From an uncultured Methanosarcinales archaeon (GTDB lineage Archaea > Nanobdellota > Nanobdellia > Woesearchaeales > SKGA01), in NCBI GenBank assembly GCA_964534065.1, contig CAZHNR010000001.1, forward strand, positions 1-41,786: a stretch of 41,786 bases of DNA, in the 5' to 3' direction. Position 1 is the stretch's first letter. Each line of letters starts with the position of its first letter. A program made the position numbers and the translations under genes. The notes under the pieces are model-generated. The model ran no database searches and was not told the DNA's origin. It was given only the letters and a program-made list of their open reading frames with translations. This document shows, one piece after another, positions 20,691 to 24,259 of this stretch.

Positions 20691-21632
20691 TTATATGTCC
20701 TTAATACCTTCAGTCACAATTTCAAAGACGCATTCTCCGTCAGGAAGATTAGGACTGTCTACAAGTTTACCAACTCGCGTACCTTTCTTACCTTTTCGCA
20801 AGTATATACGAAACGTGCTGTTATGCGCAACAATATTTCCACCAATGGCTTCAGTTGGATCGCCAAAGAATGCATCAGGTTTGGACATCACTTGGTTTGT
20901 TACATAGACGCAACAATTATGTAAATCCGCAATTTTTGCAAGCGTGTGCATATGTTTGTTTAGTTTCTGTTGACGTACAGCAAGCGTTCCTCTTCCTACA
21001 AACTCAGCTCTAAAATGTGCAGTAAGACTATCAACAACTACCACACGCACCTTGTCGCCGTTTTTTACTAACTCATCGACTTTTTCAGCAAGAAGCATCT
21101 GATGATCGGAGTTAAAAGCTCGAGCTACACGAATATTGTTTAAAGTCTCTTCAGGATCTAGTCCAAAACCTTTAGCGATTTGTTGAATACGTTCAGGACG
21201 GAATGTGTTTTCAGTGTCTATGTATACAGCAACAACGCCTGGTTCTTGAACCTGAGCACTTACACACAAAACATGTGCGATTTGTGTCTTGGAACTTCCA
21301 TATTGACCGAAACATTCAGTGATTGCTCCAGTTTCAAAACCGCCATCCATCATGGAATCAAAACTTTGACTTCCAGTAGAAACACGAATAACTGTATTTC
21401 TTTTCTCAAGTATGTCACCGCCTGACTGAAAACCCATGTTCATGTTTGAACGTGCTGCTTGAATCATTTTTCTAGCCGCTGTTTCAGTGACACCAGAAGC
21501 GTCTGCTAGCTCGCCAGGAGTGGATACGGCAATAGACATAAGATTATCATAACCGCCAGCAATGAGTTTTTCAGCAGTTGCTGCACCTACACCAGGAAGA
21601 TCCTGGATATCTAATTCTTTTGTTGCAGCCAT
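20691..21632 (-). CDS. radA: DNA repair and recombination protein RadA
   Basis: N-terminal HhH (LPGVGAATAEKLIAGGY), Walker A GQYGSSKTQ, VYIDTENTFRPERI, Walker B VVVDSL. Confidence 0.95.
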   Translation of the reverse strand: MAATKELDIQDLPGVGAATAEKLIAGGYDNLMSIAVSTPGELADASGVTETAARKMIQAARSNMNMGFQSGGDILEKRNTVIRVSTGSQSFDSMMDGGFETGAITECFGQYGSSKTQIAHVLCVSAQVQEPGVVAVYIDTENTFRPERIQQIAKGFGLDPEETLNNIRVARAFNSDHQMLLAEKVDELVKNGDKVRVVVVDSLTAHFRAEFVGRGTLAVRQQKLNKHMHTLAKIADLHNCCVYVTNQVMSKPDAFFGDPTEAIGGNIVAHNSTFRIYLRKGKKGTRVGKLVDSPNLPDGECVFEIVTEGIKDI

Positions 21633-21633
21633 T

Positions 21634-21912
21634 TTATATCTCCTCTATGCCGTCGCCTTCTTCTCGAATAGTAATATATTCGTAGGCCTTGTTGATTACT
21701 AATGCAGCTTTTGGTAAATCTTGTGTTCGTAGTGAAGTTGTTGATTTCCAAGCCCCATCTTTATCTTTATAGGTACGTTCTACAGAAACAGTTCGATAAA
21801 GGCGTGTTTCGCCTTCTTTAGTCTTTACTTCATTGGTCCAAATCGTTGCTGAAATTGGACTTGCTCTGAATTTCTTTTCAGGTGTGTTTTTATCTATATT
21901 TATTGATGTCAT
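21634..21912 (-). CDS. small hypothetical protein translationally coupled to radA (possible nucleic-acid-binding fold)
   Basis: ATG 21912 is preceded by a strong AAGGAGGT box. Its stop is 1 nt before the radA ATG. The motif SVERTYKDKDGAWKSTTSLRTQDLPKAALVINKAYEYI is only tentatively PC4-like. Confidence 0.5.
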   Translation of the reverse strand: MTSINIDKNTPEKKFRASPISATIWTNEVKTKEGETRLYRTVSVERTYKDKDGAWKSTTSLRTQDLPKAALVINKAYEYITIREEGDGIEEI

Positions 21913-22084
21913 GGTTATACCTCCTTGGTTGTCCCTTCTTATTTCACTCATTGACCGCGGTCATGAGGGGGTGGCCATCACAATACTGTTATTTTGAGAT
22001 GTTTAAATAGCTTATGAGCACATGTCCAGTGCCAATTTAGATGTACAGAAACAAGATTGTTTCTACCAATAAGAAATAAATCAC

Positions 22085-22102
22085 AGTCTCAGTACTGAGA
22101 CT
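22085..22102. repeat. 18-bp perfect palindrome AGTCTCAGTACTGAGACT (copy 1)
   Basis: Read directly from the sequence. Followed by GAACACCCCTTTAT. Confidence 0.9.
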
Positions 22103-22169
22103 CACAGAACACCCCTTTATTTCGTTTGGAACACCTTTTAATATTGAATAATATGGAATAATTAGTCTC

Positions 22170-22187
22170 AGTCTCAGTACTGAGACT
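22170..22187. repeat. 18-bp perfect palindrome AGTCTCAGTACTGAGACT (copy 2)
   Basis: Identical to copy 1. Preceded by an extra AGTCTC half-site at 22164-22169. Confidence 0.9.
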
Positions 22188-22222
22188 CATTTGAGACTAT
22201 TGAGACAGTCTCAGAAAGAGAC
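22181..22222 (+). repeat. phased TGAGAC/GAGAC repeat array (iteron-like)
   Basis: TGAGAC at 22181, 22192 and 22201 (11- and 9-bp spacing); GAGAC-A-GTCTC mini-palindrome at 22202-22212; GAGAC at 22218-22222. Confidence 0.7.
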
Positions 22223-22300
22223 CACAATACACAAGAAATACTCCCTTTTCAAGGCACATGAAACCATTGATTTAAAAATCCTGAGTCATTCGTAGTCTTT

Positions 22301-22726
22301 ATGGAGGAGCGCAAGTATGAAAAGGCCGTTCGTATGCTCCAAGAGCGGCTTGAGCGAATGAAATCACAATTAGAACATCCGCAACCACTCACTGAAGCCA
22401 CAATTCAAAAGGATGAATTAACGGATGAAGAAGATATACTCCCTCAAGAAGAGAGTCTCAGTCCAGTCTCAAAACCCCATATATACGACATAGAGCCCTC
22501 TATACACGTGTTCTCAAGTAAAAAAGAATCTCTTAAGCACAGTATCTTGCAAATATTGCTTCAAGGACAGCAGACAACAATACAACTTAAGAAACGCTTT
22601 GTCGATCTGGATAAGAAATGTTCGAAAGCAAGCTTTTACCGCTACGTGCAAGAGCTAAAAAAAGAACAAAAAATTACAACTGTCCACATAGGATCACTAG
22701 AATATTGTATTCGGGTTGAAAAATAA
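22301..22726 (+). CDS. small hypothetical protein with C-terminal winged-helix-like domain
   Basis: 141 aa. The C-terminal SILQILLQGQQTTIQLKKRFVDLDKKCSKASFYRYVQELKKEQKITTV resembles a wHTH. ATTTAAAAAT box about 25 nt upstream of the ATG. The gene itself contains AGTCTCAGTCCAGTCTCA at 22454-22471. Confidence 0.5.
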   Translation: MEERKYEKAVRMLQERLERMKSQLEHPQPLTEATIQKDELTDEEDILPQEESLSPVSKPHIYDIEPSIHVFSSKKESLKHSILQILLQGQQTTIQLKKRFVDLDKKCSKASFYRYVQELKKEQKITTVHIGSLEYCIRVEK

Positions 22727-22767
22727 AAAAAATATGTGCCAGAGCACATACAAAGAAGGCCAAGGCC

Positions 22768-23076
22768 TTATTTCTTTTCTTTGGAATGTTGTTTGTGTTG
22801 TTTCACTGTACGTGGACTTGGACTTCTTTTGCTTCCCTTTTGGGCAACTTCAATATCTAAATCCTTCAGAGCAGCTGCAACAGCAGCGGAATCCGCCCCT
22901 TTAGCAACAGAAACACTTTGTTTTGTAGGTTCTAAATGCAGTACATTGCATTTTCTCCGTCGAGTTTGGCCGTCAATAGTGACAAAACCTTTTTCGAGTT
23001 CATCTACAATAACACAGTATTTTCCTGCGTCTCGTCCAGCGAGTTTAATACAAACTCTTCCTATGGAATATAACAT
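22768..23076 (-). CDS. rpl14e: 50S ribosomal protein eL14
   Basis: MLYSIGRVCIKLAGRDAGKYCVIVD is a KOW-type N-terminus. GGAGGA lies upstream of ATG 23076. Basic C-terminal tail. Confidence 0.8.
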   Translation of the reverse strand: MLYSIGRVCIKLAGRDAGKYCVIVDELEKGFVTIDGQTRRRKCNVLHLEPTKQSVSVAKGADSAAVAAALKDLDIEVAQKGSKRSPSPRTVKQHKQHSKEKK

Positions 23077-23470: not shown

Positions 23471-24259
23471 TTATGCTAATTTGAGAAGTTTTCTCATAGA
23501 TGTTGAGAAAATAAGAGAGAAAAGAATATACGCACCAAGCCAACCCCAATTATTCACCCAAGGAATATCTTGAAGAATAAATATTCCATCAAATATTTGT
23601 AATTTTTGATAGCCTACAGTTACCGTATCGAATGCAACACCATTTACAGGAAGTACAGGCGCATATTGTGCTTGATTTGAAGATACTTCTATAGGGAGAA
23701 TGAACTCTTCTTCAGAAGCTACATGGCGGAGAATAAGCTCATACGAACCGGCAGTCTCAGCACTGAGACGCCAAGAGACTTGATTGTCAACAGGATATTT
23801 TGTGAGATTTGTTGCCACACTAAAACCCTCAGGAAGATCAAGCGTTACTGGTCCCTCTGCTGAAGGCAGTACATCAACTGTTATATCAAAGCCCGCGCCA
23901 GGAACTACTGGAGCAAAGGAAAGGAAAGCACTTAACCAACCAAAAAAAAGAATTACTGGAAGAAAAGTGTATAAAGTGGAACGAAGTGAAGACTTCATAA
24001 ACTGACCATTTAACTTCATCATTTCTTTTTGCAAAGCCATTGCTTTTTTTGGGTCTTCCTTCTGTAACTGTTGTGCCTTCTTTTGATGTCGCTTCAAATC
24101 AGCTTTCAGCTTACGTAACTTAGTCTGATCGGTTGTATACTTATATACAATAGTCGTAAGTCCAGAAACAAAGAAACTAACAATAACAATTGTCCAAAAA
24201 GAACCTACACTTTCAAGCAAAGGAAGGAGTATTGGAGAAAGAAAATCTGAAAATGCCAT
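23471..24259 (-). CDS. DUF106/EMC3-type (archaeal YidC/Oxa1-like) membrane protein with a large inserted loop domain
   Basis: TM1, then a basic coiled coil (LRKLKADLKRHQKKAQQLQKEDPKKAMALQKEMMKL), then TM2, as in DUF106 proteins. It occupies the conserved slot after secY. An extra non-hydrophobic segment of about 130 aa precedes the last TM. Confidence 0.6.
   Translation of the reverse strand: MAFSDFLSPILLPLLESVGSFWTIVIVSFFVSGLTTIVYKYTTDQTKLRKLKADLKRHQKKAQQLQKEDPKKAMALQKEMMKLNGQFMKSSLRSTLYTFLPVILFFGWLSAFLSFAPVVPGAGFDITVDVLPSAEGPVTLDLPEGFSVATNLTKYPVDNQVSWRLSAETAGSYELILRHVASEEEFILPIEVSSNQAQYAPVLPVNGVAFDTVTVGYQKLQIFDGIFILQDIPWVNNWGWLGAYILFSLIFSTSMRKLLKLA

Follow-up and report, generated by a model that had tools for sequence, protein, structure and literature searches.

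An Origin Recognition Box Between Iteron Arrays Beside a Winged-Helix Gene: A Candidate Replication-Control Module of Woesearchaeota

Introduction

Bacterial chromosomes carry sites that lie off the origin and bind the initiator together with an accessory protein: datA and DARS of Escherichia coli, with IHF and Fis, and crtS of Vibrio cholerae. In the iteron plasmids pSC101, F, P1 and RK2, phased direct repeats are combined with inverted repeats at the promoter of a winged-helix gene and with a box for the host initiator. Small, dimeric, autoregulatory proteins encoded beside their own arrays of mixed-orientation sites are represented by ParR/parC, the omega heptads, AspA of pNOB8 and Bacillus RTP/Ter. 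The present work concerns an archaeal element in which a predicted origin recognition box (ORB) lies between two arrays of short repeats, next to the gene of a winged helix-turn-helix (wHTH) protein. It was found in contig CAZHNR010000001.1 of an uncultured archaeon. The whole stretch analyzed, 41,786 nucleotides, is called the window. According to the names of the homologues, the source group is DPANN, Woesearchaeota/Nanoarchaeia.

Canonical archaeal origins follow the pattern ORB(-)/DNA unwinding element (DUE)/ORB(+), and the AAA+ and initiator-specific motif (ISM) part of Orc1 contacts DNA at the G-string of the box (preprint 10.64898/2026.08.15.744077). In Sulfolobus, both inverted ORBs are required (PMC12141716). 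The Sulfolobus origin oriC3 is without ORBs and is organized as IR(+)/ucm/IR(-), IR being an inverted repeat; its protein WhiP is Cdt1-like and has been described with two winged-helix domains (PMC4010727; preprint 10.64898/2026.08.15.744077). UBP of Sulfolobales belongs to the abundant nucleoid proteins and has over 300 sites; a single motif inside the DUE is essential, and its gene is not described as origin-linked (PMC12141716).

No full-text paper linking ORBs, origins or skew with Woesearchaeota was retrieved, and nothing in the literature on DPANN/Nanoarchaeota origins and on non-origin ORBs describes the element. From the literature found, a module of ORB, iterons and wHTH gene has not previously been described. 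The element is a compact (~220 bp), single-copy chromosomal module of Woesearchaeota, with two iteron arrays around one ORB and the protein gene adjacent. In the reading favored here, to which a probability of about 50% is given, the wHTH protein would coat the iterons, regulate its own gene and gate Orc1/Cdc6, and the whole would act as a replication-control site or as a weak, non-canonical secondary replicator.

Architecture of the Module

An initial annotation of the window had described the repeats of this region and had read them either as an operator for the adjacent wHTH protein or as an origin-like element. The features of the module in the window are:

22085-22102, no strand: left iteron array, the single palindrome AGTCTCAGTACTGAGACT, made of GTCTCA at 22086-22091 and TGAGAC at 22096-22101
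22110-22131, minus strand: ORB TTCCAAACGAAATAAAGGGGTG, with the dyad TTCCAAACGAA and the G-string GGGGTG; the G-string end points left on the plus strand
22132-22164, no strand: spacer from the end of the ORB dyad to the right array, moderately AT-rich, with no conserved unwinding element
22165-22222, no strand: right iteron array, with GTCTCA at 22165, 22171 and 22208, TGAGAC at 22181, 22192 and 22201, and GAGAC at 22218
22270-22279, plus strand: TATA-like box ATTTAAAAAT, preceding the start codon of the wHTH gene by 22 nt
22301-22726, plus strand: gene of the wHTH protein (141 aa), predicted to bind the iterons
22455-22471, no strand: intragenic iterons, two GTCTCA copies 11 bp apart, in the linker-coding part of the wHTH gene

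The 18-bp palindrome indeed occurs twice without any mismatch, at 22085-22102 and, within the right array, at 22170-22187; a search allowing three mismatches expects 0.01 matches. Both copies are embedded in a direct repeat of 30 nt (90% identical). A third copy, with 16 of 18 bases (AGTCTCAGCACTGAGACG), lies at 23753-23770 inside an EMC3/YidC-like gene and is absent from the same gene in relatives. The hexamer TGAGAC/GTCTCA is present 18 times in the window, for about 22 expected: eight copies are located within 22086-22213, four more at 22455, 22466, 23754 and 23764, and only six in the other 41 kb. Thus, the motif clusters at this locus and is under-represented in the rest of the window. 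GTCTC is a type IIS restriction site, and the depletion outside the module could reflect either selection against stray sites or avoidance of the restriction site. The three TGAGAC copies of the right array are placed as first described, with spacings of 11 and 9, and the count of nine GTCTC/GAGAC pentamers (22085-22222) is also correct.

Two other elements fared less well. GAACACC..TTTA, at 22107 and 22129, does form a repeat of 14 nt (79% identical), which is not kept as a repeat in relatives; its first copy is the G-string end of the ORB. The AT-rich stretch between the palindromes exists as well and is not unusual, as the intergenic region is 62.6% AT and its best 40-bp window 80%. The "easily melted core" that had been proposed here is not supported and not conserved; in relatives, the AT content of the modules does not exceed that of intergenic regions in general.

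The Origin Recognition Box

The ORB was found by aligning relatives. A scan of one genome per species gave 80 loci in 80 assemblies. Its minus-strand consensus is TTCCA(Y)(A/T)GGAAAT-NAN-GGGGTG, usually followed by TCTC(A). The only match of the window to TTCCANNGGAAATNNNGGGGTG is 22110-22131 (one mismatch, 0 expected). In 1.38 Mb of Woesearchaeota DNA, all 70 matches to the strict pattern fall at the wHTH module and none elsewhere, for a chance expectation of ~0.3 by our own composition estimate. The strict box is located beside the wHTH gene in 57 of the 80 species, and the full initiator-type consensus, including the G-string, is retained across about 60 species.

The boxes of two loci (L016 and L026) contain the 13-mer core ATTTCCACTGGAG. 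This core is identical to that of the ORB2 and mini-ORB probes used in Cdc6-binding assays with the ORBs of P. furiosus (PMC1904270). An unbiased metagenome scan with TTCCANNGGAAATNNNGGGGTG yielded 120 loci, from organisms of 26-71% GC. In 29 of these, a cdc6 gene lay no more than 2 kb away, usually within 500 bp; of the 36 loci flanked by 1.5 kb or more on each side, 15 had such a gene. The wHTH gene with GTCTCA arrays accompanied the box in 2 of the 120. Because of its uniqueness at the module, the identity with the P. furiosus core and the adjacency of cdc6 in metagenomes, the element at 22110-22131 is, on comparative grounds, a genuine origin recognition box.

Centered on the ORB, the iterons span about -120 to +100 bp, on both sides and in both orientations. 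An iteron abuts the G-string (junction GGGGTGTCTCA) in about 20 of 53 single-ORB loci, which makes this a preferred site.

The Iterons and the Neighboring Protein

In most of the 80 species, no hexamer is more enriched beside the wHTH gene than GTCTCA, and at least four copies lie within 900 bp of the gene in 70 of the 80. Among the relatives, its density is 5.1 per kb beside the gene vs. 0.27 per kb elsewhere. All GTCTCA clusters (88 of 88) are located at the wHTH gene; outside the modules, no inverted or everted GTCTCA pair was encountered in 1.14 Mb, and no regulon was found. At the position of the left array, relatives carry two to six copies of GTCTCA/TGAGAC in varying arrangements. Copies in direct orientation show a spacing peak at 11 bp (114 cases) and lesser peaks at 22 and 32-33 bp; in the window, the 11-bp step is seen from 22181 to 22192 and from 22455 to 22466. 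For inverted or everted pairs the spacing is not fixed; hence, the perfect palindromes of the window are the arrangement of one lineage.

About 70 species retain the module, with protein identities of 25-45% and in changing surroundings. It is located near 870.4 kb in the complete genome CP010425.1 (Archaeon GW2011_AR15, 1,157,790 bp) and near 868.7 kb in JAVZCZ010000001.1. The RadA/ribosomal context of the window is shared by only ~13 of the 80 loci; elsewhere the neighbors are DUF192, HIT, metallophosphoesterase, ABCE1 or large surface-protein genes. The wHTH gene stays beside its sites even where these move to its 3' side, as the array has done in seven lineages, and the ORB is the only other feature that remains with the pair of protein and iterons, except in two distant relatives.

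The strongest evidence for this pairing is the co-variation of the predicted recognition helix with the repeat. In the 141-aa protein the helix reads CSKASFYRY and is nearly invariant in the family, as CSKA(S/T)FYRY. Proteins with CSKSSFYRI (L210) and TSKSSFYRI (L212) are accompanied by ATTCCCA arrays without GTCTCA. Within the same RadA synteny, CSKSTFYRH (L213) goes with GTCCCA repeats and CSRATLYRH (L211) with mostly ATCTCA repeats. In all four relatives, the altered repeats retain the same phased layout. The pairing of protein and iterons is in this way established by inference from sequence. The proposal of an operator for the adjacent wHTH protein is thus strongly supported by comparison (70 of 80 species and the co-variation), the locus specificity of the motif and its conservation in relatives both being found. 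The arrays are more than a promoter operator, considering their position 3' of the gene in seven lineages and the lack of other sites in 1.1 Mb.

Further variation was observed in single loci. Upstream of the wHTH gene in L051, L053 and L063, the phased arrays contain both GTATCA and GTCTCA. As these mixtures occur with an unchanged recognition helix, the iteron seems to tolerate variation at its third base. In the divergent ...SSFYRI branch, about ten phased (C)ATTCCCA copies, without an ORB, lie beside the gene (L210, 2750-2990; L212, 40-240), and three copies of AACTCTCACTTTT are present further upstream in L210.

Intragenic iteron pairs like that of the window are also found in L020, L035 and L057, and the IMG/VR contig L215 carries five phased iterons within the linker-coding region (428-487). 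The linker-coding DNA may, therefore, double as a binding array. The same 3.6-kb contig, classed as viral (UViG_3300032020_000585), contains a wHTH relative and GTCTCA arrays at 1-760, its wHTH gene following directly after the end of an open reading frame (ORF) that resembles a serine recombinase. Mobile elements may be a further carrier of the module.

The 141-aa coiled-coil/winged-helix protein consists of an N-terminal helix (residues 3-25), a disordered linker (26-73) and a C-terminal wHTH domain (74-138). Its AlphaFold model has a predicted local distance difference test score (pLDDT) of 82 overall and above 95 for the wHTH domain. A word-indexed homology search returned only the protein itself; an exhaustive search found 61 distant homologues with a common plan of N-terminal helix, variable disordered linker and C-terminal wHTH. 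The 141-aa protein itself has no match in Pfam, and 23 of the 61 family members match the FUR wHTH model weakly. The best fold matches of the model are PadR/ArsR winged helices, and a profile search against PDB sequences gave coiled-coil noise only, with no significant match. A stand-alone winged-helix domain of Orc1 was considered and rejected, the best folds being PadR/ArsR and not Cdc6.

Distinction from the Main Origin

No Orc1/Cdc6 gene is present in the window, as the initial annotation had said: none was detected by phmmer with the Cdc6 sequence of 1FNN. The same search revealed no cdc6 within ±10 kb in about 85 loci, the best E-value being 0.13. The cdc6 gene of Woesearchaeota is highly conserved, with 75-94% identity among many clusters. 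In three cdc6 loci (L207-L209), genes for TBP, MCM, an OB-fold protein and SpoIIM on the opposite strand are followed by an intergenic region of 620-1320 bp and then by cdc6, PolD DP1 and DP2. These intergenic regions have inverted ORBs at their ends and 95-100% AT over 40 bp, an arrangement resembling that of Pyrococcus; no GTCTCA cluster was found in them. They are candidate canonical oriC regions, organized as ORB(-)/long AT tract/ORB(+):

L207, 5381-6000
L208, 5215-6000
L209, 4681-6000

The module looks different. It has one ORB, as in the window, or two to three in the same orientation in some relatives, and no inverted ORB pair was encountered in the window or in relatives. The mean maximum AT content over 40 bp is 0.835 for the modules vs. 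0.84 for other intergenic regions (p = 0.40); the maximum is 0.80 in the intergenic region of the window, in comparison with 0.95-1.0 upstream of cdc6. In view of the published ORB(-)/DUE/ORB(+) pattern and of the Sulfolobus requirement for both inverted boxes, the module is, as far as its sequence tells, not the main or canonical origin.

The alternative that survives best is nevertheless an active second origin, built like that of an iteron plasmid and possibly acquired from an extrachromosomal element. In such an origin, the locus-specific factor would be the wHTH protein, and Orc1 on the ORB would load MCM; by analogy, the ORB would play the part of the single DnaA box in pSC101-type origins. 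Phased direct and inverted repeats at the promoter of an adjacent winged-helix gene, together with a box for the host initiator, are in agreement with such an origin, and so is the location beside the gene of the binding protein, as in archaeal pairs of origin and initiator (PMC4010727). Relatives of the protein are also found with iterons on two IMG/VR contigs, one of them beside the recombinase-like ORF. What is missing is the unwinding element, and the ORBs, single or in direct tandem, are never inverted, while Sulfolobus needs both (PMC12141716). The protein appears to be one small wHTH protein rather than a two-domain Rep or a Cdt1-like WhiP; no match to a Rep family of Pfam was obtained for it or for its homologues, and the model has a single wHTH.

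Skew does not help this alternative. The GC skew at third codon positions (GC3) is slightly higher in the would-be leading-strand genes than in the lagging ones (p = 0.03), but the signal weakens to p = 0.08-0.11 once the wHTH gene or the syntenic group is left out, and a mock centre gives an equal one. The right-minus-left GC skew around the ORB has the wrong sign and is confounded by gene strand. Across the window there is no inflection of skew. The skew is treated as uninformative. Moreover, the genes do not diverge from the site, and in the lineage of the window the ribosomal-protein operons are transcribed toward it. A second origin is, on balance, unlikely. The origin reading of the initial annotation is partly supported, in that an initiator site, the ORB, does lie between the arrays; it does not hold for the GAACACC repeats and the melting core and, probably, not for origin activity.

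Other Explanations

Less probable than a second origin is a purely transcriptional element, in which the wHTH protein would be an autoregulator and the ORB an operator through which Orc1/Cdc6 tunes the wHTH gene and neighbors such as p92-radA in the window, p92 being the 92-aa gene upstream of radA, without any role in replication. In the window, the arrays do lie between two divergent promoters; they adjoin that of the wHTH gene there and in most species, where the last iteron is 10-50 nt upstream of the TATA box. The wHTH domain resembles PadR/ArsR/FUR regulators, and distant family members have arrays without an ORB. Paralogues of Orc1 can regulate transcription, as is reported for Orc1-2 of Sulfolobales (PMC9738581). 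On the other hand, such a regulator, whose roughly ten sites all lie at one locus and which has no others in 1.1 Mb, could control only itself. The ORB is kept, with its initiator-type consensus and G-string intact, in lineages with different flanking genes, and in the seven lineages already mentioned the module is downstream of the gene.

A centromere-like segregation site is improbable. In the manner of ParR/parC, omega and AspA, a small dimeric adaptor would coat the arrays and bring in a motor or division protein through its N-terminal helix, and the ORB would couple segregation to replication. Two mixed-orientation arrays with 11-bp phasing flank a central element next to the gene of the binding protein, 5' or 3' of it, the site is single-copy, and an N-terminal helix with a long linker suits an adaptor. 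The best folds include PadR-type winged helices, and AspA of pNOB8 is reportedly PadR-like. Among the 80 loci, on the contrary, no gene for ParA, ParM, TubZ or another NTPase is conserved beside the module, the partner of the protein is hypothetical, and no known centromere has an initiator box. A polar fork trap of the Ter type was also considered and rejected, both iteron orientations being equally common on each side of the ORB.

A functionless chance cluster, dispersed repeat or mobile-element remnant is already refuted: the 18-mer with its 30-nt context does look like a recent local duplication, and the 16/18 copy in the nearby gene is not conserved in relatives, but 0.01 matches are expected, the motif is otherwise depleted in the window, and ~70 species conserve the module.

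Gene Context and Promoters

To the left of the region, the genes are on the minus strand, in the order TrmB, FmrO, Pelota, RadA and a 92-aa gene. To the right, the 141-aa gene on the plus strand is followed, on the minus strand, by L14e, L34e, the EMC3/YidC-like gene, SecY and genes of ribosomal proteins. Judging from homologue lengths, the small gene upstream of radA begins at ATG 21912 and not at 21951. The intergenic region between the 92-aa and the 141-aa gene is, therefore, 21913-22300 (388 bp). The features on this side are:

21634-21912, minus strand: 92-aa gene upstream of radA, supported by 71 homologues, mostly of 92 aa, by synteny and by GGAGG 6 nt upstream
22002-22031, minus strand: predicted promoter region of p92-radA, with the TATA box TTTAAATA at 22002-22009 and the boxes GCTTATGAG at 22010-22018 and GTCCAGTG at 22024-22031

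The 92-aa gene bounds the element on the left only in the lineage of the window, about 13 of the 80 species having such a neighbor. Both TATA-like boxes of the initial annotation are where it had placed them (TTTAAATA at 22002-22009, ATTTAAAAAT at 22270-22279). The TATA box of p92-radA and its two accompanying boxes are found in all syntenic relatives, at a constant spacing to the p92 start. The boxes GCTTATGAG and GTCCAGTG could be the site of a separate regulator or the remnant of a mini-ORB. The heptamer TCCAGTG in this region equals half an ORB dyad. On the side of the wHTH gene, relatives have a TTTAAATA box ~10-15 nt after the last GAGAC. The position of the TATA box 22 nt before the ATG suggests that the mRNA of the wHTH gene is leaderless or nearly so, the transcription start being placed from the TATA box. 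Scans for sigma-70 promoters and terminators were judged meaningless for an archaeon, and an Rfam scan of 21500-22900 gave no match.

The 5' leader of the p92/radA operon (21913-21980, minus strand) shows a conserved CCCTC, a variable hairpin and then GTGAAATAAGARGGGAAACCAAGGAGG just before the start codon. A comparison of 15 relatives revealed compensatory changes at four of the five pairs of the hairpin; the CCCTC could alternatively pair with the Shine-Dalgarno sequence GGAGG. The leader has no matching Rfam family. The 92-aa protein, always encoded directly upstream of radA in this group (71 homologues), has no Pfam family either. Its model (pLDDT 85) consists of four beta-strands and a long C-terminal helix, and its fold matches, all weak (E > 0.04), include Pur-alpha, PC4 and SSB. 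Judging from this model, it may bind single-stranded nucleic acid.

Discussion

The favored replication-control module can be pictured as follows. The 141-aa protein probably dimerises via its N-terminal helix and would present two wHTH domains on long, flexible linkers. It is proposed that these linkers make half-sites usable in direct, inverted or everted arrangement. The 11-bp phasing would let molecules bind side by side and cooperatively on one face of the helix, so that the protein would coat both arrays, possibly bridging them. Since this coat would lie just upstream of the TATA box of the wHTH gene and in part within the gene itself, the protein is proposed to repress its own leaderless promoter. 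The coat is also proposed to help or hinder Orc1/Cdc6 at the solitary ORB, because the iteron next to the G-string falls where Orc1 touches the DNA with its AAA+/ISM part. In a more specific version, the module is a dedicated locus apart from oriC, at which the lineage-specific wHTH protein on its phased iterons captures or releases Orc1/Cdc6 at the single, high-consensus ORB, as an archaeal counterpart of datA, DARS and crtS. This version is tentative: possible, not probable.

Several points weigh against a replication-control module. Binding by either protein is inferred from comparison, as are autoregulation and an effect on replication, and "replication control" is borrowed by analogy from bacterial systems. 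The array located 3' of the gene in seven lineages means that autoregulation is not universal. The copy in the window has a degenerate iteron at the G-string (GGGGTGTTCTG) and a single mismatch in the ORB dyad. The distant members L210 and L212 have iteron arrays without an ORB; hence, the unit of protein and iterons can exist without Orc1. Finally, the module and the cdc6-adjacent oriC come from different contigs of the same group, and their coexistence in one genome is suggested by the breadth of both.

If the more specific version is true, the module would be the first initiator-control site with its own specificity factor to be described in archaea. The control of archaeal Orc1/Cdc6 after firing is largely unknown, and DPANN archaea are not yet genetically tractable. 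The module offers a concrete handle, testable with a pair of small proteins in recombinant form and a piece of DNA of 150 bp, and the juxtaposed sites (GGGGTGTCTCA) predict cooperation or competition between the initiator and a dedicated partner. The natural variants of helix and iteron (GTCTCA, GTCCCA, ATCTCA and ATTCCCA) form a specificity series for a compact winged-helix reader of DNA. A practical consequence concerns origin predictors based on ORBs, which may call a second origin at the module in Woesearchaeota (Nanobdellota). Two features speak against such a call: the module has no unwinding element, and its ORBs do not form an inverted pair.

Comparison with Known Systems

The ORB of the module is built like those beside cdc6 in canonical Orc1/Cdc6 origins: a dyad TTCCAnnGGAAAT, a 3-nt spacer and the G-string GGGGTG. 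Unlike in these origins, it is solitary or in direct tandem, without an unwinding element and with no cdc6 within 10 kb, and around it lie some ten sites for a different protein.

With Sulfolobus oriC3 and WhiP, the module shares a winged-helix gene adjoining a central motif that is flanked by repeats. Its protein, on the contrary, has one wHTH and an N-terminal helix, and the center is an ORB. The WhiP-type motifs TACTACTACTAC and the ucm TTATACAAAC are absent from 21913-22300, and their counts in the window are at chance level. The ucm/UBP pair of Sulfolobales likewise involves a non-initiator DNA-binding protein with specific sites beside ORBs, and it provides a precedent for an accessory factor. 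The protein of the module differs from UBP by having one locus with many sites and an adjacent gene.

As in the iteron plasmids, phased direct repeats lie beside the gene of the (predicted) binding protein. The core of 6-8 bp at 11-bp phasing is much unlike the 17-22 bp of plasmid iterons, there is no AT-rich region, and the protein is not a two-domain Rep. Furthermore, the element is chromosomal, among housekeeping genes.

ParR, omega, AspA and RTP differ from the module in that the latter has no partner NTPase gene, its neighbors in the window being p92/RadA and L14e. In contrast to RTP/Ter, its iterons favor neither orientation to the left or to the right of the ORB. An initiator box between the arrays, as in the module, is not known from any of these systems.

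The datA, DARS and crtS sites belong to another domain of life and work with other proteins, using several DnaA boxes and general nucleoid proteins, while the module has a dedicated adjacent gene. Judged by what they do, these sites are nonetheless probably its nearest functional analogy.

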